From the sequence record NC_055709.1: DNA of 64,000 nt; one strand, written 5' to 3'. Source of the DNA: Escherichia phage phiE142. Positions 3,868-60,542 of this stretch are shown here, in pieces (the first letter of the stretch is position 1; the number at the start of each line of letters is the position of its first letter). The notes beneath the pieces are model-generated. The model ran no database searches, had not been told where the DNA came from, and worked only from the letters and a program-made list of their open reading frames with translations. The translations under genes were made by a program, and so were the position numbers.

Positions 3868-3898
3868 TAAGAGGGGCTTCGGCCCCTTGGAGGTTTAT

Positions 3899-5362: not shown

Positions 5363-5635
5363 TTATTTGTTTGTATACATCTCTAGATATCGATATACAC
5401 CCTCAAAACCCTCGTTGAATTCGTCGATGAGGGTTTTCTTATCTTCTTGGGTTAATTCAGAAACAATTTTACGGAATGAATTCTGATTTAATTTTCTACC
5501 TTCATGCGTTACTCCAATCTCATTCAGAAATGCAATAAAATTAGCACGATTCTCAACAATATCTTCTCTGGAAAATTTAATCAAAATAGACGCAACAGTA
5601 ATAATTTCACGAACTGTATCAATGTTTTTATTCAT
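5363..5635 (-). CDS. asiA: Anti-sigma70 factor AsiA
   Basis: 90 aa MNKNIDTVREIITVASILIKFSREDIVENRANF... matches T4 AsiA from memory. Confidence 0.9.
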   Translation of the reverse strand: MNKNIDTVREIITVASILIKFSREDIVENRANFIAFLNEIGVTHEGRKLNQNSFRKIVSELTQEDKKTLIDEFNEGFEGVYRYLEMYTNK

Positions 5636-5647
5636 TAACTATACCAC

Positions 5648-5800
5648 TCAATTAGTTGACTTTATTATAATATCATCAGACACTTGATTTGTAAACTGGT
5701 CTGTGTTATTTTCTTCAAAAATTTTTTCTACGAATTCCTTGAACGACTCACGTTCTTGAGCTACATTGTGCTCGATTACCTTTTCAAGATTATGACTCAT
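5648..5800 (-). CDS. Hypothetical small protein (50 aa)
   Basis: ATG-initiated ORF filling the asiA-arn gap, start overlaps arn stop (ATGA); not in ORF track because under 60 aa. Confidence 0.35.
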   Translation of the reverse strand: MSHNLEKVIEHNVAQERESFKEFVEKIFEENNTDQFTNQVSDDIIIKSTN

Positions 5801-6075
5801 TCGAAATAATCTTCAATTTCATAATCATGGACATAAATCATTATAGTTTTTAATACATCATCAATACTTTTTCCTGGAGCTGGAATTACGTAAAAATATC
5901 CTGCTTTTGAGAGGTCTTTATAAGTTCCAATCAAGAAATCATTATTCTCGAGATGTAGTTCTTCAACTAATTCATTAACAATTGAGTGGTATAAATTTGG
6001 TAGAAACTTATATAGCTTTTCTAGAATATCAATTTTGATTGTGTATTGAACCACAGACTGAGAATCAATAATCAT
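5797..6075 (-). CDS. arn: Arn-like anti-restriction protein (McrBC inhibitor)
   Basis: 92-aa acidic protein at the T4 arn position between asiA and motA. Confidence 0.65.
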   Translation of the reverse strand: MIIDSQSVVQYTIKIDILEKLYKFLPNLYHSIVNELVEELHLENNDFLIGTYKDLSKAGYFYVIPAPGKSIDDVLKTIMIYVHDYEIEDYFE

Positions 6076-7467: not shown

Positions 7468-8100
7468 TCACAGTACGTTAGTTACAAGGGTAATGATTTC
7501 TTTGGACACATTAGGGAAGTCAATGTAAGTATATTTACCACCGATCTTAATCTTAACATCATTTTCAAGAGAAGTAAACAGCTTTGATTCAGTTTCTGAC
7601 ATGTTGTATGCAAAGATTCTAAGAGCGCCATCTCGTCGAATTTCAATTTGGCGAATGCCTAGAACTCGTTTAGCGAATCGAACTTCTAAGTTACTACGGT
7701 TTTCACCAATTTCTTTAACTTCAACTTTATCTTTAATATTTTCAAAAACAAAGTTTGCTAATTCATGCATTTCAGGAGTAACTCCACGTGCTTTTCTAGT
7801 GTTACGTTTCTGAAGAAGTTCTGGAGCATTTTCTTGAGCAAATAGGTCTGCAGCTTTTTGGATAATATCCATTGCTTCGCCGGTTGCCACAAGTCCATCA
7901 CCAGATTTTTCGACTAAACCTTTCTTAATCAATACACCAATGTTAGAGTTAACAACTGATGCATTGTATTCTGCTTCCAGAGCTTCACGGACATTGGCAG
8001 CAGTGGTGAAGTTGTTCTTAATGATATAAACCATTATTGCCGCAGTTTTTTCATTCAGAGCGTTTTCAGAAGCTTTGATGATGTAAGTAACTTTAGACAT
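7468..8100 (-). CDS. motA: Middle-transcription activator MotA
   Basis: 210 aa, MSKVTYIIKAS...NSNIGVLIKKGLVEKSGDGL matches T4 MotA. Confidence 0.85.
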   Translation of the reverse strand: MSKVTYIIKASENALNEKTAAIMVYIIKNNFTTAANVREALEAEYNASVVNSNIGVLIKKGLVEKSGDGLVATGEAMDIIQKAADLFAQENAPELLQKRNTRKARGVTPEMHELANFVFENIKDKVEVKEIGENRSNLEVRFAKRVLGIRQIEIRRDGALRIFAYNMSETESKLFTSLENDVKIKIGGKYTYIDFPNVSKEIITLVTNVL

Positions 8101-8179: not shown

Positions 8180-8212
8180 AAAAAAAAATGCACAAAGGGA
8201 GCCGAAGCTCCC
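8180..8212 (-). terminator. Rho-independent terminator-like hairpin
   Basis: Minus strand GGGAGCTTCGGCTCCC followed by TTTGTGCATTTTTTTTT, downstream of gene 52. Confidence 0.6.
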
Positions 8213-8288
8213 TAATCGTGATTGTCCAACCAATACAGCCAAATCACTAGTGCGGCTATTGCACCGAGAAATCCTAAGGCTAGGGCAC

Positions 8289-9618: not shown

Positions 9619-9759
9619 TCACCATATTAATGAACGAATAATCATTATAACATCTGAAATGAAAAGCACTACTTGGATTAGTCCAAACATCACACCGTAG
9701 TACAGAACCGTAAGCAACAACAAGAGCCCGAAGGCTCCTGCTAAGATGTTCTTAATCAT
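9619..9759 (-). CDS. Hypothetical small membrane protein (46 aa)
   Basis: Hydrophobic ORF with AAGGCGAG ribosome-binding site; at the T4 ac/stp position between 52 and ndd. Confidence 0.35.
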   Translation of the reverse strand: MIKNILAGAFGLLLLLTVLYYGVMFGLIQVVLFISDVIMIIRSLIW

Positions 9760-10932: not shown

Positions 10933-11196
10933 TCATATCTCAACTTCCGTGAGTTCCATATATCCTTTGTTGATAACCTCTTTAAGGTCTTTAGAAAGAA
11001 TAACACCAAAATGGTCATTCATATGTCCATTAACTAAACGAGTTATTTCGGCTTCGGATGACATATAAGGCACGTCTGAGTCCCAATGAGATAGACCTAA
11101 ATGAGTATAAATCATCCCTTCGTCATCTGCAGTGTTGTACATTGAAACAAACTCACCAGTCACTTTATGTTTTGCGTAGAAAAATTTAAATTTCAT
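10933..11196 (-). CDS. Hypothetical early protein (87 aa)
   Basis: ORF with own promoter. Confidence 0.45.
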   Translation of the reverse strand: MKFKFFYAKHKVTGEFVSMYNTADDEGMIYTHLGLSHWDSDVPYMSSEAEITRLVNGHMNDHFGVILSKDLKEVINKGYMELTEVEI

Positions 11197-12053: not shown

Positions 12054-12080
12054 CTAAAGAAAAAGGGGACCGAAGTCCCC
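12054..12080 (-). terminator. Rho-independent terminator after rIIB
   Basis: Minus strand GGGGACTTCGGTCCCC followed by TTTTTCTTT. Confidence 0.65.
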
Positions 12081-16650: not shown

Positions 16651-16685
16651 TTATTAAAATTAAAATGAAGCTCCCGAAGGAGCTT
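16651..16685 (-). terminator. Terminator-like hairpin
   Basis: Minus strand AAGCTCCTTCGGGAGCTT followed by CATTTTAATTTTAAT, overlapping the HNH gene stop. Confidence 0.5.
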
Positions 16686-19342: not shown

Positions 19343-19365
19343 AAAGCAAAAAGGGCCGAAGCCCT
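19343..19365 (-). terminator. Rho-independent terminator
   Basis: Minus strand AGGGCTTCGGCCCT followed by TTTTTGCTTT. Confidence 0.6.
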
Positions 19366-19790
19366 TATTTAAATTTAATTTTCTGAAGTGCATCAATTGC
19401 AGCCAGGCGCCCTTGTTCACTTTTAACTGTAATGACCACATCGCCTGATACGATCACCGAACCATCAACAAATTCTATAGAGCCTTTTTTGAAATCAACA
19501 GATGTATCTGGTTCCGGAACTTCTTCAAAGAATTTAAATTCTGCACCATAAAGCAGAATATCACCTTGCATACTATGAATAGTTCGGCCATAATCGCCTA
19601 CGGCTTCTACAGCAATAACCGAAACACCGTAACCAATCATCTCTTCCACAATAAAATCTTTGGACAATAAAGTAGTATGCAGATTAGTATTAAGACGTTT
19701 ACCAGTCGTATTAAGAATTCTCAAGAAATTATCTTCCTGTCCTTTGATAATACGATATTTCTTACCAACTTCAAAACCTTTAAAAGCCAT
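19365..19790 (-). CDS. Hypothetical early protein (141 aa)
   Basis: ORF upstream of gene 39. Confidence 0.5.
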   Translation of the reverse strand: MAFKGFEVGKKYRIIKGQEDNFLRILNTTGKRLNTNLHTTLLSKDFIVEEMIGYGVSVIAVEAVGDYGRTIHSMQGDILLYGAEFKFFEEVPEPDTSVDFKKGSIEFVDGSVIVSGDVVITVKSEQGRLAAIDALQKIKFK

Positions 19791-25843: not shown

Positions 25844-25995
25844 AATATTTTCCTCTGTCTTACGGACGTTAGGTCATTTAGCTGATAAGCTTATAATATC
25901 ATGCCCTCAGGTAGTGTACACTCTTTTTTCGTAAAATGCTTTAATTTTTTATGTGTTATAATGGTTCTGAGTTCCATCCGGTTATTCCAATCCAG

Positions 25996-27833: not shown

Positions 27834-28082
27834 TCATTCACAGCTCCCTGAGCTTGAACTACAATCAGAATCACTTGTCCCAGAATCACCAGGCCAAGAC
27901 GATACGTATGAATGATTATAACTTGAAGAGCTTGAAGCATTAACCTGTTTTGTTTTTGGACGAATAACTTCTTCCATCATTCCGTCACCGATATATTCCC
28001 AACTTTTTTCATGTGTATCAGGAATAGGCATCATCCCTTCGCCTGGTTTAGCAGCAAAAAACTTCTTCAGCATCGTAAGCAT
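27834..28082 (-). CDS. Hypothetical protein with Ser-rich C-terminus
   Basis: Start taken at internal ATG (MLTMLKK) to limit overlap with upstream ORF. Confidence 0.4.
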   Translation of the reverse strand: MLTMLKKFFAAKPGEGMMPIPDTHEKSWEYIGDGMMEEVIRPKTKQVNASSSSSYNHSYVSSWPGDSGTSDSDCSSSSGSCE

Positions 28083-28336: not shown

Positions 28337-28368
28337 AAAAACGAAAAAAGGAATCCCGAAGGATTCCT
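28337..28368 (-). terminator. Rho-independent terminator after soc
   Basis: Minus strand AGGAATCCTTCGGGATTCCT followed by TTTTTTCGTTTTT. Confidence 0.65.
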
Positions 28369-28376
28369 TAAATTAT

Positions 28377-29463: not shown

Positions 29464-30482
29464 ATTTTAGAATACCGAGATAATCTCATTTTAGCATGCA
29501 ACCCACTTGAAATATTCTGTTTCATATATTCTAAAATTTCTTGTGGTGTTGCATTTTCTTTCATTACCATATCATTCACATCCTTTGAACTCCATGGAGC
29601 TCTATCCCAGAACATAACACGTTCACCTGCATCTACTAATCGCTTCATACGAGCTATAGTATCCGGATGCCTAGGTTCATTATCCATTACCCATACCCGA
29701 CGTTCTTTAAATGGTACCACATCTAAATCTATTGAGCCGCCTGTAATAGCGATTGCATTGGGTATGAATAAACTATCAATAGGGCCTTCCATTACCCAGA
29801 CGTCTCCTTCCTTAACACGTTCAACACCATAAATTTTTGTTGCAGATTCAAAAGCTTTAATAGTGATATATTTTTGAGGAGCATCTTTGCGAAGTGCACG
29901 TCCTTGAAATGACTCGGCCTTCCCGTCTTTATTAAAAATAGGAATCACTAAACGCGGTTCAGGAATCTCTTTCTTATACGTACCAGGTTGAATCTTGTTG
30001 ACCAATTTAGGCCATTCTAATGTGAACCATAATCTGTTCCACGATTCTTTAGGAATACACCGAGACTTAACATATTTCACAATAGGATGCTCTTCAGGCA
30101 GCTTGTCCAGACGAGAACAAGACGGCAAAGAATTTATAGTCTTTTTCTCCGGTTCTGGTTTATGTTCAGGAACCTTTTCAATCTTTGGTTCCATTCTAGC
30201 TTTTTCTTTACGAACTTCCATTAGATATTCACGATAAAGCTCTTCGTCATACTCTTTTAAGTATCCGGAAATTGTATTATGATATTGGCAGTTATAGCAA
30301 TGCACATTACCTGGAGTACCACCGTAATACCATCCGCGGGCTTTCATTGCATCTGTCTGAGAGTCGCCGCAAACTGGACAACGAAACGTTAATTTAAATG
30401 TGCTTGAATTATTGATTTGTCTAAAACGAGGTAGGTGAGAAAACGCACGATAAGCAAATTCATTATCTATCCATTCAGCCAT
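29460..30482 (-). CDS. 61: DNA primase gp61
   Basis: 340 aa; N-terminal zinc ribbon CPVCGDS...CYNCQYH and TOPRIM-like C-terminal region; T4 gp61 size/position. Confidence 0.85.
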   Translation of the reverse strand: MAEWIDNEFAYRAFSHLPRFRQINNSSTFKLTFRCPVCGDSQTDAMKARGWYYGGTPGNVHCYNCQYHNTISGYLKEYDEELYREYLMEVRKEKARMEPKIEKVPEHKPEPEKKTINSLPSCSRLDKLPEEHPIVKYVKSRCIPKESWNRLWFTLEWPKLVNKIQPGTYKKEIPEPRLVIPIFNKDGKAESFQGRALRKDAPQKYITIKAFESATKIYGVERVKEGDVWVMEGPIDSLFIPNAIAITGGSIDLDVVPFKERRVWVMDNEPRHPDTIARMKRLVDAGERVMFWDRAPWSSKDVNDMVMKENATPQEILEYMKQNISSGLHAKMRLSRYSKI

Positions 30483-33959: not shown

Positions 33960-33966
33960 CCCGAAA

Positions 33967-33990
33967 GGAGACCGAAGTCTCCTTTTTATT
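33967..33990. other. GC hairpin directly after the gene 41 stop
   Basis: GGAGACCGAAGTCTCC; T-tract follows on the plus strand, not on the minus strand. Confidence 0.5.
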
Positions 33991-35440: not shown

Positions 35441-35803
35441 TTAAAAGAATTTAAATTTTTTCTTGGTTCGTTCATTAAAAGCTTGTTGTACCTGCATTGT
35501 AACACATTTTTCAACATGTGGTGCAAGTTCTGCTTTTCTGTCCTGGTCAAGAACTGCAAAGTCCATTACGATTTTACCATCAACCCAGTCTAGTTTTGTA
35601 ATATAGACTATATGATGAGAACCGTCTTCAAGTGTAATCAGAATCTCTTGAATGACATTTTCCATTGCTGAACGGATAATTTTAAGAGATTCATTAAACA
35701 CTCGTTCTTTGCGAATGTCTTCCCCTTCCGAAGAAGGGGATTCATCAACGATTTCTAGATTTAAATCATCGAGATTATTCATCGAAATCTTCCATTTCGT
35801 CAA
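35441..35803 (-). CDS. gp40-like protein (120 aa)
   Basis: Positional call between uvsX and 41. Confidence 0.45.
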   Translation of the reverse strand: MTKWKISMNNLDDLNLEIVDESPSSEGEDIRKERVFNESLKIIRSAMENVIQEILITLEDGSHHIVYITKLDWVDGKIVMDFAVLDQDRKAELAPHVEKCVTMQVQQAFNERTKKKFKFF

Positions 35804-37596: not shown

Positions 37597-38496
37597 TTAT
37601 TCCTCGATTACGACATCTTCGTATTTAGGTATATTATACGGCGAAGAAATTAAAGCATTAAAGTAGATGAACTCACCAAGACCTGGATGGAATACTTCTT
37701 CAGGATTTTCGAAATATTGAATCTTCGGACGTCCTTTAAGAATTTGGTAGTACTCAGTTTTAGTTGGTTTAAAAATTCTAATCAGCGCTTCTTCAGGATA
37801 CTTATTTCTGTCGAAGCTATTATTTGGATCGGTTATATAAAGCGGTTGACCTAATTGAATTGCACATTCAACCACTTGTTCAAAATGATAACACGGATCA
37901 CTAATTCGAAATGGATGAAAAATACCATCTACATGAATAGGAGCCAAATCACCTACAAGACGCTGCATGATGGAAGGACGTATAACTTTCTGCGTTACGA
38001 TAATCTTATTATCATCTGCGCCAGCGTTAACCAGCACTTCCTTTTGACGTTTATTCAACACAGTTGTTTGGATTGAACGATTAACCGACAACATGTCGGT
38101 TTTTAAGAATTCGTCAATATAAAAACGTGGTTTATTAGGGTCTGCAGTGATATTGAAATTGAATTCTACATCAAAAGCGCCGTCATATCCAGTGATATCT
38201 GTGATTAGAAAATCACAATCATAATAAGCAATTAATGAATCAACCACAAATTCATTTTCAGACCAGAAATATTTACGGGTGTTATACGCGTTATCTTTAT
38301 ACCATAATGGAACAAACTTAAATTCTGGAAAAAGACGTTCGCATTCTTTAATATCAGATGCATTACGTGGATATGTAATCACATCACCCGGATTAGCACG
38401 GTGCAAATGAAGTTGGAAGTTGCCATCCTTAAGGATAGCATACTGTCCAGTTTCATAAGACCGCATACTCAAGATAGGTACGCGGAAAATAGCCAT
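37597..38496 (-). CDS. Hypothetical protein (299 aa) in the beta-gt slot
   Basis: No recognisable motif; translationally coupled to flanking genes. Confidence 0.5.
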   Translation of the reverse strand: MAIFRVPILSMRSYETGQYAILKDGNFQLHLHRANPGDVITYPRNASDIKECERLFPEFKFVPLWYKDNAYNTRKYFWSENEFVVDSLIAYYDCDFLITDITGYDGAFDVEFNFNITADPNKPRFYIDEFLKTDMLSVNRSIQTTVLNKRQKEVLVNAGADDNKIIVTQKVIRPSIMQRLVGDLAPIHVDGIFHPFRISDPCYHFEQVVECAIQLGQPLYITDPNNSFDRNKYPEEALIRIFKPTKTEYYQILKGRPKIQYFENPEEVFHPGLGEFIYFNALISSPYNIPKYEDVVIEE

Positions 38497-43637: not shown

Positions 43638-46349
43638 TCAAAAATCGAACATATCGAATAGAGATGCTTTCTTCTCGTAATCGAGTTTCGCTGCTGATGT
43701 GAATCCTTCAAGTGGTTTAATAAATGTCTTCTCAAGGAGAACAGTGTAGTCCATCCAATGAAGTACGTCGTCTTTAATTAAATCTGTGATTTCAGTACCA
43801 GAAGGCCATGCGATACATTTATCACCGAATGGGTTTCCTTCACGTAAAGGCAGAACATATACTTTTTCACCTTCTACAACTTGTGGAGCATCAATATTAC
43901 CTTTGATAGCCCGGTTATACGTCAGAATTCCACGAATATGGAACGGACATTTGGGACCAGGGAATCCACCTACATCATATTTAGCAATGTTATTCGCAGA
44001 AGATACCGACGCGATGCTAATATAATTCAATTGACGGAATTCTTTTTCAAACTCTTTAAAATATTCTTGTAATGATTCTTCACCTTCTTGAAGCATACGA
44101 CGAATACATTCTTTAAGAGCTTTCTGTACCGCTTTAGGAGTTGAAGATTTCTGTGTTTCGAGACCCATGATTTTGAGTTTAGGCTCAGCGTAACGAGTAC
44201 CTTCCATATCCCACACGTTTAATGCATAACGTTTCTTACCAGTCCAGAATCCGCCAATACCTTTAGAACCAAGCGGAGGACCAGCGATAGCTTCTCGGTC
44301 CATGAACATTAAGTGTTGTTTATTGTTCATGTATTCACACATTTCACGGAAACCTTTATCAATAGCTGGTTCCATACGTTCACGTGCGAACTTATCTAAG
44401 AAGTCTACCCAATGGTTGGTATCACGGAATTTAGATTCACCAACCTTATCGATAATTTTATCAGCAGATACGTAAATAGAGTCTGTATCACCATAAAGAA
44501 CGAAAGCTTCACCTTCTGTACCACAAACTTCATTCAGATATTCATTAACTTTACGTTCAATCCACTGTAAAGCCATTTGCCCGAATGTTGTGATTGCAGT
44601 AGCATTACGCAAATCGTAATAACGGAACCATACGTTACCAAGTGCACCATAAAGCGAGTTGATAAGCAATTTACGGTTAATTTGTGCAGTCATACCTGCA
44701 ACTTCAGTACGTTGAGCTCTAAACAACATTTCATTAAGAGATTTAGCAGACAACTTTTTAATCTTTTCTTTAATCTCATCGCTGAAGTCGAAACGATAAT
44801 CAACATCTAATGGTTCGTCAACAGAAAGATTAGGATTATGCAATGCCTCTTTAATTATTTCACCATTACGTTGAGCTGCAAGCATGTAACCTTTATGTTC
44901 TTTACGCTGATTAAAGACCTTAGTGATTTCAGTTGGAACTACACCGTCACGGTCTTTATAATACATCATGCCGTTAGGAGAGCAACTGTACACATCTGAA
45001 GGACGTTCAGCGATTGCGTTAATATAATCATGCAGTGGAGCTACTTTAAACGTTCCTGCTATTGTTTCCGGGCTAATATTCACTTGGCGAATAATACTTG
45101 GATACAGAGACGTAAGGTCGAAACTCATTACATATTTGTATCGATTTGGAATAGGTTCCTTAACAAAAGCGCCAGGATAAGGTTGAACCGGGTGAGAACG
45201 ACCTTGTGGAATCACCTTGTTTTGTTCTTTAAGGCTATTAAAAATAATAGCATCCCAAGTTTTAATTGGACTGAACACAGATTGAATCTGAATTTTAGCA
45301 TAATAACCCATGTCCAAGCTCAAGTTGATGAACTGACGCTTAGAATCAATTTGCAATACACGATACACGTCGATAATGTTATAAGAAATATATCGTTGGT
45401 GATTGCTTTCACGAAGCTTAGAAATAGGGCCGTCATATTTCAGTTTACCAATGTTCAATTCAAATTCTGAAATGTAATCCAGAGAATACGACGGTTGATT
45501 GGTAAAAGAGAATTTTTTGTAAAGGTCAATGTAATCAAGAACAGAGATACCGAACAATGTAATGATTTCACGAGAACCATACATGTTTTCGATAACTTTA
45601 ACACGAGTTTTACGATGTGGTGATAAACGTTTCGCAGTAGATTCGCCAAAAATATTCTTGATTCGGTTATACACATATGGAATATCAAATGACTCAACGT
45701 TCCATCCAGTCAAAATGACAGGAGTTTTCTGTTGCCAGAAGTTGAGATATTCCATCAACAATTCTTTTTCGTTATCGAACGGCATATAAATGATTTTATC
45801 GATAATTTCGGACGGAACTTCATCACCACCTTGTTCTTGAAGCTTAGCAGCGATTTCAATAGACCATTCTTCCACATTACCATATGGAGAATTCAATAGA
45901 TCAAATACGTAGAACCTGTCGTCAATTGAGTCATAATGGGTGATAGCATCAATCGGATGTTTTGCTTGTGACGGCTCAGGGAATCCATCCGGAGATGTTA
46001 CTTCGATGTCGAAGTTAGCCACACGAATTTTTGTATGGTCGTATTTGATTTCATAGTTATAAGTGTCAGACAAATACGCCAATTTGAAATCGTCCATGCC
46101 AAGTGCTTCAAGACCGATATCTTCCATGCGTTTAATCCATTGAGACGCATCACGCATATTAGCGAACAACTTACGAGTACACGGCTTACCGTAGATATCG
46201 AAATATTTCGTAGCCTGACTTTCTGGACAATGAGCAAACAGTGATGGTTTATATTCTACTTCACGAGTACGTTCACGGCCATTAGAATCGATGTAACGTT
46301 CAAAAATTGAATCACCAATCTGTTCAACCGTTAAGTAAAATTCTTTCAT
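43638..46349 (-). CDS. 43: DNA polymerase gp43 (family B), RB69-type
   Basis: 903 aa; sequence matches RB69 gp43 as I recall it from structural literature, including exo motifs FDIEV and YNIIDV and YGDTDS. Confidence 0.95.
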   Translation of the reverse strand: MKEFYLTVEQIGDSIFERYIDSNGRERTREVEYKPSLFAHCPESQATKYFDIYGKPCTRKLFANMRDASQWIKRMEDIGLEALGMDDFKLAYLSDTYNYEIKYDHTKIRVANFDIEVTSPDGFPEPSQAKHPIDAITHYDSIDDRFYVFDLLNSPYGNVEEWSIEIAAKLQEQGGDEVPSEIIDKIIYMPFDNEKELLMEYLNFWQQKTPVILTGWNVESFDIPYVYNRIKNIFGESTAKRLSPHRKTRVKVIENMYGSREIITLFGISVLDYIDLYKKFSFTNQPSYSLDYISEFELNIGKLKYDGPISKLRESNHQRYISYNIIDVYRVLQIDSKRQFINLSLDMGYYAKIQIQSVFSPIKTWDAIIFNSLKEQNKVIPQGRSHPVQPYPGAFVKEPIPNRYKYVMSFDLTSLYPSIIRQVNISPETIAGTFKVAPLHDYINAIAERPSDVYSCSPNGMMYYKDRDGVVPTEITKVFNQRKEHKGYMLAAQRNGEIIKEALHNPNLSVDEPLDVDYRFDFSDEIKEKIKKLSAKSLNEMLFRAQRTEVAGMTAQINRKLLINSLYGALGNVWFRYYDLRNATAITTFGQMALQWIERKVNEYLNEVCGTEGEAFVLYGDTDSIYVSADKIIDKVGESKFRDTNHWVDFLDKFARERMEPAIDKGFREMCEYMNNKQHLMFMDREAIAGPPLGSKGIGGFWTGKKRYALNVWDMEGTRYAEPKLKIMGLETQKSSTPKAVQKALKECIRRMLQEGEESLQEYFKEFEKEFRQLNYISIASVSSANNIAKYDVGGFPGPKCPFHIRGILTYNRAIKGNIDAPQVVEGEKVYVLPLREGNPFGDKCIAWPSGTEITDLIKDDVLHWMDYTVLLEKTFIKPLEGFTSAAKLDYEKKASLFDMFDF

Positions 46350-46378
46350 TTAATTTCCTTTAGACGAGTTATTGTCTT
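46350..46378 (-). promoter_or_regulatory. Gene 43 translational operator-like hairpin adjacent to the ribosome-binding site
   Basis: mRNA sense AAGACAAUAACUCGUCUAAAGGAAAUUAA AUG; stem AGAC/GUCU with AAUAACUC loop resembling the T4-family gp43 operator. Confidence 0.5.
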
Positions 46379-46408
46379 TTGTTTGTTGATGAACTTATTA
46401 TACTCCAA

Positions 46409-46426
46409 ATGGGACCGAAGTCCCAT
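46409..46426. other. GC hairpin between regA and gene 43
   Basis: ATGGGACCGAAGTCCCAT; on the minus strand followed by TTGGAGTATAAT (weak U-tract, -10-like hexamer). Confidence 0.45.
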
Positions 46427-46430
46427 TGCT

Positions 46431-46808
46431 TTAATTACCAATTGTATATTTTGCTTTCAAAGTCCAGTCATCTTTCTGTTTAAAAGAGATAACTCGGAAG
46501 TTATTAGTCAGGCTAAATAGATCTTCACGAGCAGAGTCTTCAATAACAATCAATCCCCAGTCTTCAAGCAACTGAGCAATCGAATCGCGTCGTTGATAGT
46601 CTTCACCATCAATATCAACCTGACGTCCGTCCATACGCAACATTTCTTTAAAGTGGACGATGTAATATTTACCTTGCTTTTGGAGGATATGACAGGACTG
46701 ATAAAGAACTTTATCTTTGTTATTAGCGATGCCCATACGGGTCAAAGTCTCTTTGACTTTCAGAAAATCTTCAGGGTTCTTCAATTTAATTTCAATCATT
46801 TTTACCAT
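46431..46808 (-). CDS. regA: Translational repressor RegA
   Basis: 125 aa; [34 protein letters not shown] matches T4 RegA. Confidence 0.9.
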
Positions 46809-47365
46809 TCCAATGCTAATTTTTTAAATTGTTTTTGTTCTTTTACGTTTTTAGTAACTTCTTTGAGAAATTCATCAGTGACCATGGCCTTCAGTTCTTT
46901 AAGGACTATTGGCAACTTGTTATTTTTTTCAAGGAGCCGCTTATACTCGGTAGCATCATTCATGTTGATTGTGTAATGTTTCATCAACAGTTTGATAACT
47001 AGTAACTCTGAAGTGTCTTCGACTAGTTTAGCCCATTTAGAGAATCGACGACCACGTGGAATTGCCGCCATCATATAGTTGAAGTGCGCTTCATCACTTA
47101 ATTCAGAACCGACCAAGTTCATCATGTAAACGGCTGGCATACATTCTGGAAACTGGGATAATGAGTTCTCAACCATAAATTTTGAGTAGTCTACCTGAGC
47201 AATTGACATAGATTTCTTTTCATTAATAGCATTAATGATTTTAAAGAATTCGTTCTCAGGTTTTTCTTTAAACATATCAGCACATTTTTGAATCGCATCA
47301 GCGTCATTAGACTTCCATGCAATTTGGTGCTCGTTAAGCTGGACGTCATCATCGAATAAGTTCAT
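46802..47365 (-). CDS. 62: Clamp loader small subunit gp62
   Basis: 187 aa; [30 protein letters not shown] match T4 gp62. Confidence 0.85.
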
Positions 47366-47366
47366 A

Positions 47367-48329
47367 TTATTTCCAAGTCAGTTCGCAGGTCAGTTGAAGA
47401 AGCATATACATAACATGTAATTCAATATTACTTGCTAGTCCATGAAACTTATTATTTTCGCCTGCAATTTCGTAAAGCGAAATAATACTTTTACCAGGTG
47501 CAACTTGGTCATAACATTCTGAAACTAATTTATCGATGAACCACGAATAATCTGCAGCATATTTTGGAGCTAATGCACGAAGCTGTTTGATATCTTTGTT
47601 CTTCATTGCTTCGATAACATCAGAGACTGTGCCACGGTCATTAATTACGATAGACAGAATACCTGCATCAAGAACACCTTTAGACGAGTACTGGTCTAAT
47701 TGACCAATTGTACGACGAAAGTCTGGGAAGTTCTTTTTAACCAGAGCTGCAACAACTTTCATATCAGCGATTTCGATATTTTCGTTCTTACAGATTTCAA
47801 CCATACGATGAATCATTTTCTTCATCATCGAGATTTTATCTTCTTCAGTCGGACGACCGAATTCGATAACTCGACAACGACTACGTAATGGTTCAATAAT
47901 TCCATCAATATTGTTAGCAGTGATAATAATAGAGCAGTTACTAGAGAATTCTTCCATAAACGTACGAAGGTGACGTTGTGATTCGGCGAGGCCACTACGG
48001 TCAAATTCATCAATAACAATAACTTTAGGCTTGCCTTCCATTGAGACTGAACGAGCGAATGCAGTTAACGGACCACGCACAAAATCAATCTTACAATCAG
48101 AACCGTTGACGAACATCATTTCGGCATTGATATCATTACATAATGCTTTTGCTACGGTTGTTTTACCGGTACCAGGAGATGGAGAGTGTAAAATAATATG
48201 AGGAAGTTTTCCTTTAGATACTAAAGACTTGAATGTTTCATGGTCATACGCAGGCAGAATACATTCGTCAATGGAAGAAGGACGATATTTCTGTTCTAGA
48301 ATGTGTTCTTTGGAATTGATAGTAATCAT
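47367..48329 (-). CDS. 44: Clamp loader large subunit gp44 (AAA+)
   Basis: 320 aa; Walker [12 protein letters not shown]; position. Confidence 0.9.
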
Positions 48330-53030: not shown

Positions 53031-53060
53031 TAAAGCAAAAAAGGAACTCCGAAGAGTTCC
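53031..53060 (-). terminator. Rho-independent terminator
   Basis: Minus strand GGAACTCTTCGGAGTTCC followed by TTTTTTGCTTTAT. Confidence 0.6.
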
Positions 53061-53233
53061 TATCCACATAGTACACCATACAGAGGCTCATTTGAACTTT
53101 TAAATCGAATGGGCTTGTACGTAATAGTTCCTTCGGCTTTAGCTTTATCATAAGACTCTTTAAAACGTCTCATTCTTTCTGCTTTGCCTTTACGGATTTT
53201 ATCGAAATTTTCAGAAGTCGGGATGTTCGTCAT
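53060..53233 (-). CDS. Hypothetical small protein (57 aa)
   Basis: ATG with GAGAGGTG ribosome-binding site, terminator directly downstream; under 60 aa so absent from track. Confidence 0.4.
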   Translation of the reverse strand: MTNIPTSENFDKIRKGKAERMRRFKESYDKAKAEGTITYKPIRFKSSNEPLYGVLCG

Positions 53234-60072: not shown

Positions 60073-60542
60073 TTTAAACTCTTTCTAAGCTGCTTTTTGA
60101 ATGAAGCTATTAATTGTGTTTTAGTATCAGATTCATTATATTCAAATCCTCTTTGAAGCATCTCGGTCATCATTTCCTCTTTACCTAGTCTTGAGAACTC
60201 TTTAGTTTTGTCTGGAACAAAATTAGGATGGATATTATTATCAGAATAATCTTGTTTCAAATAAGCAAGAAGAGCTTCAAGCCATTCGAGGTAATCAACG
60301 TTTTGACCTTTAAGACCAGAACGGTTGAACTTATGCTTCATTTGACCTTCTGCTGCGTTGCACAGATTACAGAGTAATCCACGAACCTTACCAGCTTTTG
60401 GCCCGTTTAACTCGTGGTCGTGGTCAAGATGGTTACCTTGAACATCAGGGTCTAATTCACGGTGGCAAATAGGACACTTACCGTTCTGTGCATCATAAAA
60501 TTTTTGTTTTTCTTCTTTATATTTTGCGCCTGATAATAACAT
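60069..60542 (-). CDS. 49: Endonuclease VII gp49 (Holliday junction resolvase)
   Basis: 157 aa; matches T4 Endo VII (CPICHREL..., HLDHDHELNG, C-terminus SFKKQLRKSLK). Confidence 0.92.
   Translation of the reverse strand: MLLSGAKYKEEKQKFYDAQNGKCPICHRELDPDVQGNHLDHDHELNGPKAGKVRGLLCNLCNAAEGQMKHKFNRSGLKGQNVDYLEWLEALLAYLKQDYSDNNIHPNFVPDKTKEFSRLGKEEMMTEMLQRGFEYNESDTKTQLIASFKKQLRKSLK

Follow-up and report, generated by a model that had tools for sequence, protein, structure and literature searches.

The translational operator of gene 43 is reportedly the subject of Andrake et al. (1988) for T4 and of Wang, Pavlov and Karam (1997) and Petrov and Karam (2002) for RB69, and the first SELEX experiment, by Tuerk and Gold (1990), is said to have taken the T4 gene 43 operator as its target. 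The hyperstable C(UUCG)G tetraloop hairpins of T4 mRNA reportedly go back to Tuerk et al. (1988).

In T4 and RB69, the DNA polymerase gp43 is an autogenous translational repressor, as set out in the review of Uzan & Miller (PMC3014915). Its operator consists of a hairpin plus a sequence overlapping the ribosome binding site; the T4 hairpin measures 18 nt and that of RB69 16 nt, and a -UAAC- loop is common to both (PMC3014915). Crosslinking places the RB69 operator RNA at the palm domain of gp43, the loop recovered by SELEX with gp43 was that of the operator, alongside a 'major variant' whose loop is -CAAC-, and the gp43 proteins of some T4 relatives do not autoregulate (PMC3014915). The polymerases of T4 and RB69 differ in their RNA specificity, and binding of RNA and binding of DNA are mutually exclusive (PMC535899). 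Two further elements of these genomes are relevant here: C(UUCG)G hairpins, an unusually stable class first found in T4 mRNA (PMC4371310), and the T4 middle promoter P43, whose transcripts start at position 29933 (PMC2988021 Table 1, Hinton review).

The regA-43 spacer of phiE142

The DNA analysed, a stretch of 64,000 nt from Escherichia phage phiE142 (NC_055709.1) that we call the window, belongs by its sequence to an RB69-like Mosigvirus. The regA-43 region shows 98% nucleotide identity to RB69 and its relatives, with 153 records within the 95–99% band. The genes lie on the minus strand, where gene 44 (47367..48329) and gene 62 (46802..47365) are followed by regA (46431..46808) and gene 43 (43638..46349). 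The regA reading frame has 125 codons for the translational repressor RegA (Pfam Translat_reg, 201 bits), is annotated as regA in RB69, and ends in a UAA stop codon at 46433..46431. Gene 43 encodes a family B DNA polymerase of 903 aa, gp43 (Pfam DNA_pol_B_exo1 and DNA_pol_B), and is thus both the source of the repressor and the regulated gene; its ATG, taken from the list of open reading frames, occupies 46347..46349, and the first 250 aa of the protein are 100% identical to RB69 gp43. Over the full length, 899 of the 903 residues are shared with RB69 gp43 AAP75958 (99.6%), the differences being the four conservative substitutions I300V, S336A, I446V and K665R, and the nucleotide identity of the gene to that of RB69 is 98.0%. 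The top PDB matches of the protein are full-length DNA polymerase chains of 903 aa (1CLQ and 1IG9), which we take to be RB69 gp43.

The spacer between regA and gene 43 comprises 81 nt. Read 5' to 3' on the minus strand, it leads from the regA UAA through AGC, AAUGGGAC-UUCG-GUCCCAUU, U, GGAG, UAUAAU, AAGUUCAUCAACAAACAAA, AGAC-AAUAACUC-GUCU, A, AAGGAA and AUUAA to the AUG of gene 43. Together with its flanks (121 nt in all), it is 100% identical, base for base, to RB69 (AY303349), and 142 of 156 related phage records match the 91-nt leader at 99% identity or more. The GenBank records of T4 and RB69 carry no promoter, terminator or operator features at the regA-43 region.

The hairpin proximal to the ribosome binding site lies at 46362..46377 (minus strand), with AGAC at 46377..46374, the loop AAUAACUC at 46373..46366 and GUCU at 46365..46362. 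It is 16 nt long, has an 8-nt loop, and occupies positions −28 to −13 from the gene 43 ATG, leaving a single base before AAGGAA and 12 nt before the start codon. The single-stranded 3' part of the operator, which is also the ribosome binding site, covers 46350..46361 (minus strand; A-AAGGAA-AUUAA), with the Shine-Dalgarno sequence AAGGAA at 46360..46355 (−11 to −6); the boundaries given here for the operator, like the RB69 transcript map, come from the review combined with inference.

Both AGAC-AAUAACUC-GUCU (16 nt) in the window and AGCCU-AAUAACUC-GGGCU (18 nt) in T4 fit the description in the review. According to the review, the two hairpins of T4 and RB69 agree in their 'top 10 bases' (PMC3014915); between T4 and the window we count nine contiguous identical bases (AAUAACUCG), the 5' closing base being U in T4 and C here. 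An earlier note on this DNA, which drew on the letters alone, had pointed to an AGAC/GUCU hairpin beside AAGGAA, just 5' of the polymerase ATG, and had likened it to the operator through which T4-family polymerases repress their own synthesis. All of these elements are indeed present on the minus strand, and the resemblance is borne out by a spacer identical to that of RB69, by a 16-nt hairpin as in the review and by the 99.6% identity of gp43; set beside the two known operators, the hairpin is identical to that of RB69 and shares with T4 the same 8-nt loop, carried there on a 5-bp stem.

On sequence grounds, the hairpin at the ribosome binding site is the RB69 gp43 translational operator, unchanged and already known, an assignment that we make because the spacer is identical and because of the comparative analysis described below. 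More broadly, we read the regA-43 spacer as three stacked control elements known from T4 and RB69, namely the operator, the −10 element of a promoter and the UUCG hairpin, and place the probability of this reading at about 0.88. The operator would then comprise a weak 16-nt hairpin and the single-stranded region next to it, in which the Shine-Dalgarno sequence lies. By analogy with the literature on the identical RB69 sequence, free gp43, when not engaged on primer-template DNA, would bind this RNA through its DNA-binding region, and bound gp43 would block access of the 30S subunit to a ribosome binding site only 1–12 nt away, so that the polymerase would repress its own translation. As DNA competes with the operator RNA in the published systems, polymerase synthesis would be expected to track the pool of unengaged polymerase.

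The upstream hairpin and the probable gene 43 promoter

A second hairpin, AAUGGGAC-UUCG-GUCCCAUU, lies distal to regA at 46408..46427 (minus strand). It starts 3 nt past the regA stop codon and has an 8-bp stem with four G-C pairs and a ΔG of −11.1 kcal/mol, strong by itself. The hairpin is followed by U, GGAG (46406..46403) and TATAAT (46402..46397), with the tail UGGAGUAU. The earlier note rightly placed it after regA but, at 46409-46426, drew it one pair too short at each end. It also described a TATAAT hexamer in place of a U-tract: the hexamer is there, and a canonical U-tract (at least 5 U in 8 nt) is absent after the stem, with no call from the terminator scan on the minus strand, although a short U run, AUUU, does exist and the relatives have four to five U. 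Because a canonical U-tract is lacking, the hairpin is at most a weak terminator or attenuator, or a protector of 3' ends. A terminator-like call on the plus strand at 46408-46427 was discarded, as it is the same palindrome reversed and the only plus-strand reading frame there is a mechanical TTG ORF of 45 aa (46383..46520) antisense to regA.

Across lineages, compensatory changes are seen at seven of the eight stem pairs, and the paired cells amount to 93% in a loop-centred, ungapped alignment built by a best-hairpin search, a procedure that inflates the percentage paired but not the compensatory changes. RNAalifold on an unanchored MAFFT alignment missed this hairpin, as MAFFT had placed gaps in the tetraloops. 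The loops found in the different lineages are UUCG, UACG, UUAC and GAAA, some of them closed by G-C; since all of these replacements are stable tetraloop types, the variation points to selection on an RNA structure rather than on a DNA motif.

C(UUCG)G hairpins occur at about a dozen intergenic-looking positions of the window. They include 8213..8196, 9743..9718, 12080..12065, 16685..16668, 19366..19351, 28369..28348, 33985..33964, 35740..35721 and 53061..53042 on the minus strand and 3871..3888 on the plus strand. Two of them are directly followed by a consensus MotA box (TTTGCTTTA after 19366..19351 and TTTTTGCTTTA after 53061..53042), which suggests that terminator-plus-middle-promoter cassettes may recur in the window.

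The TATAAT at 46397..46402 (minus strand) aligns with the T4 TATAAT at 29943..29938, and the mapped T4 P43 start, 29933, is the fifth base after that hexamer. Because the homologous T4 hexamer lies 5 nt before a mapped start, the TATAAT of the window is likely the −10 element of the gene 43 promoter, the homologue of P43 and of the middle-promoter class, with a predicted start at 46390..46392 (minus strand): homology to T4 gives the fifth nucleotide after the hexamer, 46392, and the canonical seventh nucleotide is 46390. The element would thus drive transcripts from about 46392-46390, with a predicted leader of about 42 nt that begins 13–15 nt 5' of the operator hairpin. The sequence GGAGTATAAT is conserved across lineages. 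Our literature search for genome-wide maps of T4 transcription starts or terminators returned no usable map.

The predicted start lies 3' of the UUCG hairpin, so the hairpin is probably outside the leader of the gene's own transcript and would be found in the 3' end of regA messages or in read-through RNA. The earlier note had counted it as part of the gene 43 leader, which is probably not the case given the T4-based start. We infer that the hairpin is probably an attenuator and a 3'-end protector of the 45-44-62-regA transcripts, on which it would act as a leaky terminator and as a barrier to 3' exonucleases. In the DNA, the same stretch would overlap the upstream part of the gene 43 promoter (the −35/−30 region).

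The phage encodes both MotA (7468..8100, minus strand; Pfam MotA_activ and MotCF) and AsiA (5363..5635, minus strand). Within MotA, the MotA_activ match scores 134 bits and that of the DNA-binding domain, MotCF, is far weaker at 34.5 bits, so the latter domain may have diverged. The DNA mimic Arn is also encoded, at 5797..6075 (minus strand). The canonical arrangement TGCTTYA-N11-13-TATAAT occurs four times in the window against 0.03 expected; these sites are 25937..25962 on the plus strand and 27939..27915, 37657..37633 and 60160..60135 on the minus strand. Upstream of the gene 43 TATAAT, no consensus MotA box, (a/t)(a/t)(a/t)TGCTTtA, is present at 12 ± 1 bp, and the minus-strand promoter scan found no sigma-70 −35 element for this hexamer, the best hexamers found by eye matching at two to three of six positions.

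These features bear on a different reading, in which the UUCG hairpin is primarily a DNA promoter element whose loop (ACTTCG; GCTTCG in T4) is the core of the P43 MotA box and the RNA hairpin is incidental. It is favoured by the listing of T4 P43 as a MotA-dependent middle promoter (PMC2988021) and by the fact that the only CTT cores upstream of the T4 P43 −10 fall in the hairpin, but the spacing in T4 would be 15 bp, outside the 12 ± 1 bp range. In the window, which encodes motA and asiA, the loop sequence TGGGACTTCG is located 13 bp from TATAAT and contains a CTT core and, like T4 P46, an ACTT centre, yet the pattern is at chance level: ACTTY-N12-14-TATAAT occurs once against 0.72 expected, which gives a MotA box of the ACTT type no statistical support. 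Moreover, several lineages swap the loop for UACG, GAAA or G(UUCG)C and keep the stem by compensatory changes, and the more distant lineages L025-L034 have separate TGCTA/TACTT boxes, 11–12 bp from the −10 and between it and the hairpin. On balance, we regard a primary role of the hairpin as a DNA element as unlikely.

The GGAG between the hairpin and the −10 (46403..46406, minus strand) is conserved. It directly precedes TATAAT in 24 of 33 distinct leaders and is replaced by GGAU in three of the 33, counts in which the leader of one locus (L010) was assigned by eye. According to a review, the RegB consensus is GG*AGRAYARAA and the synthesis of gp43 in T4 is stimulated by RegB. Compared with the RegB/S1 consensus, the window offers a partial match, GGAGUAUAAUA, with five of seven downstream positions. 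The GGAG is possibly a RegB cleavage site on read-through RNA, or it may reflect a constraint on the promoter spacer.

A combined scheme would have the 20-bp palindrome read twice, as a hyperstable RNA hairpin terminating or protecting regA transcripts and as DNA in which the loop (ACTTCG; GCTTCG in T4) serves as a degenerate MotA-box core, while RegB would cut at the conserved GGAG and so shorten read-through RNA to the operator-bearing leader. Double reading of the palindrome would explain the MotA dependence of T4 P43 without a properly spaced consensus box, and a RegB cut at GGAG would explain the stimulation of gp43 synthesis by RegB. We offer this scheme tentatively and consider it improbable.

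Directly 5' of the UUCG hairpin, AAGCAA (46426..46431, minus strand) is found in 17 of 33 distinct leaders, or in 18 when AAGCAG in L022 is included. Besides the window, it occurs in T4 and in the loci L006-L010, L013, L014, L016-L018, L020, L024, L036, L037 and L039, and its conservation extends to leaders in which regA and gene 43 are separated by an additional small ORF. Read on the other strand, AAGCAA gives TTGCTT, the core of the MotA box, and it would lie at about −41 to −36 of the predicted promoter.

Conservation of the operator among related phages

For comparison, we used 60 IMG/VR loci encoding relatives of gp43, along with T4, MX01, X20 and PSD2002. In most Tevenvirinae-like lineages, the leader has four parts, these being a GC hairpin with a tetraloop, (G)GAGTATAAT, a AAUNACUC hairpin, and AAGGA-ATG. 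The operator stem was examined in 16 distinct sequences anchored on the loop motif alone, so that their choice was independent of the stem. Eight of the nine loop-plus-G columns are invariant in these 16 operator sequences, and the loop varies solely at position 4 (A, C or U). At the five flanking stem positions, 85% of cells pair, compared with 61% after shuffling, and 22 cells carry double changes, a number matched by none of 500 shuffles; slid-register controls gave 15–43% pairing. Three of the five stem pairs show compensatory changes in this loop-anchored alignment, and among the pair types are A-U/G-C, G-C/A-U/C-G/U-A and C-G/A-U/G-U. From the unanchored MAFFT alignment, RNAalifold recovered the same four operator pairs, of which three have compensatory changes.

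Trained on these sequences, a covariance model gave a single match in the 64-kb window, at 46358..46381 with 33.3 bits against 13.6 for the runner-up, although this match is partly by construction because the training set included the window sequence. Among the related loci, 39 contained exactly one match each, always just 5' of the gp43 ATG, and no match was obtained in the more divergent loci L015, L038, L040-L047 and L051-L065. These results demonstrate that the operator is under structural selection, that it is unique in the window and that it is placed at the ribosome binding site. The 39 loci span several Tevenvirinae lineages, with loop position 4 variable and stems covarying, and could guide studies of gp43 binding specificity.

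Several variants were seen along the way. Among 33 distinct leaders, the loop is AAUAACUC in 11, AAUCACUC in 13 and AAUUACUC in eight, the variation being confined to position 4; the -CAAC- loop of the SELEX 'major variant' was seen in no locus compared. In L015 (1400-1500), a tetraloop hairpin, AGCC-ACAC-GGCU, replaces the 8-nt operator loop of the other lineages, and in L046 and L047 (1400-1500 in both), a PeSL-like TTGACA-17-TATAAT stands between GGGG and CCCC and the AAUNACUC hairpin is missing; autoregulation by gp43 may have been lost or replaced in these three lineages. An extra small ORF, hypothetical or ORF43.1, lies between regA and gene 43 in L005 (966-1181) and, upstream of 1400, in L006-L009, L018 and L022. 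The lineages with this ORF are Dhakavirus and some T4-like phages, and the block of hairpin, promoter and operator is unchanged downstream of it.

It has to be asked whether autoregulation by gp43 is the main function of the conserved hairpin. It might instead act mainly as a 5'-end stabiliser (against RNase E/G) of the short P43 transcript, or as a ribosome standby site or enhancer, with gp43 binding secondary. In T4, just 4 nt separate the hairpin from the mapped 5' end of the P43 transcript, a typical position for a 5' stabiliser, but the hairpin of the window is 13–15 nt from the predicted 5' end. The existence of T4-related gp43 proteins that do not autoregulate would suit such a role (PMC3014915), whereas an invariant 8-nt loop sequence is not needed by a pure stabiliser and the same loop was recovered by SELEX with gp43. 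We thus find a main function other than gp43 autoregulation very unlikely.

Similarly improbable is a role of the upstream hairpin within the gene 43 leader, where it would work together with the operator, for instance as a further contact for gp43 or as an alternative pairing partner. Read-through transcripts from upstream promoters would presumably carry both hairpins, but the start mapped for T4 P43 is 3' of the upstream one, the minimum free energy (MFE) and centroid folds show no pairing between the two, the distance between them ranges from 20 to 44 nt across lineages, and the dozen or so similar UUCG hairpins at other intergenic positions of the window speak for a generic element. The odds against such cooperation appear slightly longer than those against a main function other than autoregulation.

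As a fold, the operator hairpin is modest. The MFE and centroid structures of the 106-nt spacer contain both the operator and the UUCG hairpin, and the operator pairs have probabilities of 0.92–0.99 in a predicted leader of 61 nt. The ΔG of −2.2 kcal/mol is, however, thermodynamically marginal, the window holds 768 Watson-Crick hairpins with 4 bp and an 8-nt loop, and the z-score of the whole-spacer fold is only −1.62. An Rfam search of 1.2 kb around the site, in E-value mode, returned sub-threshold chance matches only and no operator family. Taken alone, the operator hairpin is therefore at chance level, and its significance derives from the comparative data and from its identity with a characterised element, not from the fold alone. 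The motif AATAACTCG occurs three times in the window (0.69 expected); the other two sites, at 846 on the plus strand and at 11039 on the minus strand, were rejected as extra operators, as they lack flanking stems and one of them is inside an ORF.

On these figures for energy, frequency and z-score and on the lack of an Rfam family match, one might take the small hairpin for a chance fold in an A-rich 5' UTR and leave expression to transcription and to general regulators such as RegA and RegB, but the near-invariant loop, the compensatory stem changes across lineages, the single and position-specific covariance-model match, the identity to an RB69 operator that binds gp43 and the absence of stems at the other two AATAACTCG sites make this hardly credible.

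Comparison with described systems

The gp43 operator is textbook autogenous translational control, and there is little new in it as a discovery. For the phiE142 genome, the gain is a confirmed annotation of the regA-43 control region, in which we attribute the TATAAT to the gene 43 promoter and place the UUCG hairpin on the upstream message instead of in the leader.

Similar architectures have been described as PeSL (promoter-early stem-loop) cassettes in RB49 and phi1, where the stem-loop is a terminator or attenuator for upstream transcription (PMC2839356). In both, a GC-rich stem-loop reaches into the upstream region of a promoter, and the composite intergenic cassette also includes a stop codon, a −10 element, a Shine-Dalgarno sequence and an ATG. 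Unlike the PeSL cassettes, which have strong sigma-70 −35 and −10 elements and flank ORFans in hyperplastic regions, the locus of the window is without a −35, corresponds to a T4 promoter of the middle class and lies among core replication genes, so that the likeness is one of architecture only.

The upstream hairpin itself agrees with the C(UUCG)G hairpins of T4 in loop and closing pair, in its intercistronic location and in its high stability, and we see no difference between them. The promoter likewise follows T4 P43: the TATAAT is homologous, GGAG precedes it in both phages, the window encodes MotA and AsiA, and a consensus MotA box at 12 ± 1 bp upstream is absent from both, the start being mapped in T4 only.

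The T4 operator shares with that of the window the loop AAUAACUC and the 3' closing G, and the mechanism would be the same. The order of elements is also the same in T4, with the UUCG hairpin, GGAGTATAAT, the operator hairpin, AAGGA and the ATG following one another. The stem differs, with 5 bp in T4 (AGCCU/GGGCU, ΔG −5.2 kcal/mol) versus 4 bp in the window (AGAC/GUCU, ΔG −2.2 kcal/mol), as does the position of the hairpin from the ATG, −36 to −19 in T4 versus −28 to −13 in the window. The distance from the promoter start to the hairpin is about 4 nt in T4 and 13–15 nt in the window, which has an insert, CAUCAACAAACAAA.

With RB69, in contrast, no difference is detectable at the RNA level, although phiE142 is a separate isolate whose flanking genes show about 98% nucleotide identity. 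The RB69 operator and that of the window are the same in the whole spacer, in the 16-nt hairpin, in the loop AAUAACUC and in the position adjoining the Shine-Dalgarno sequence.
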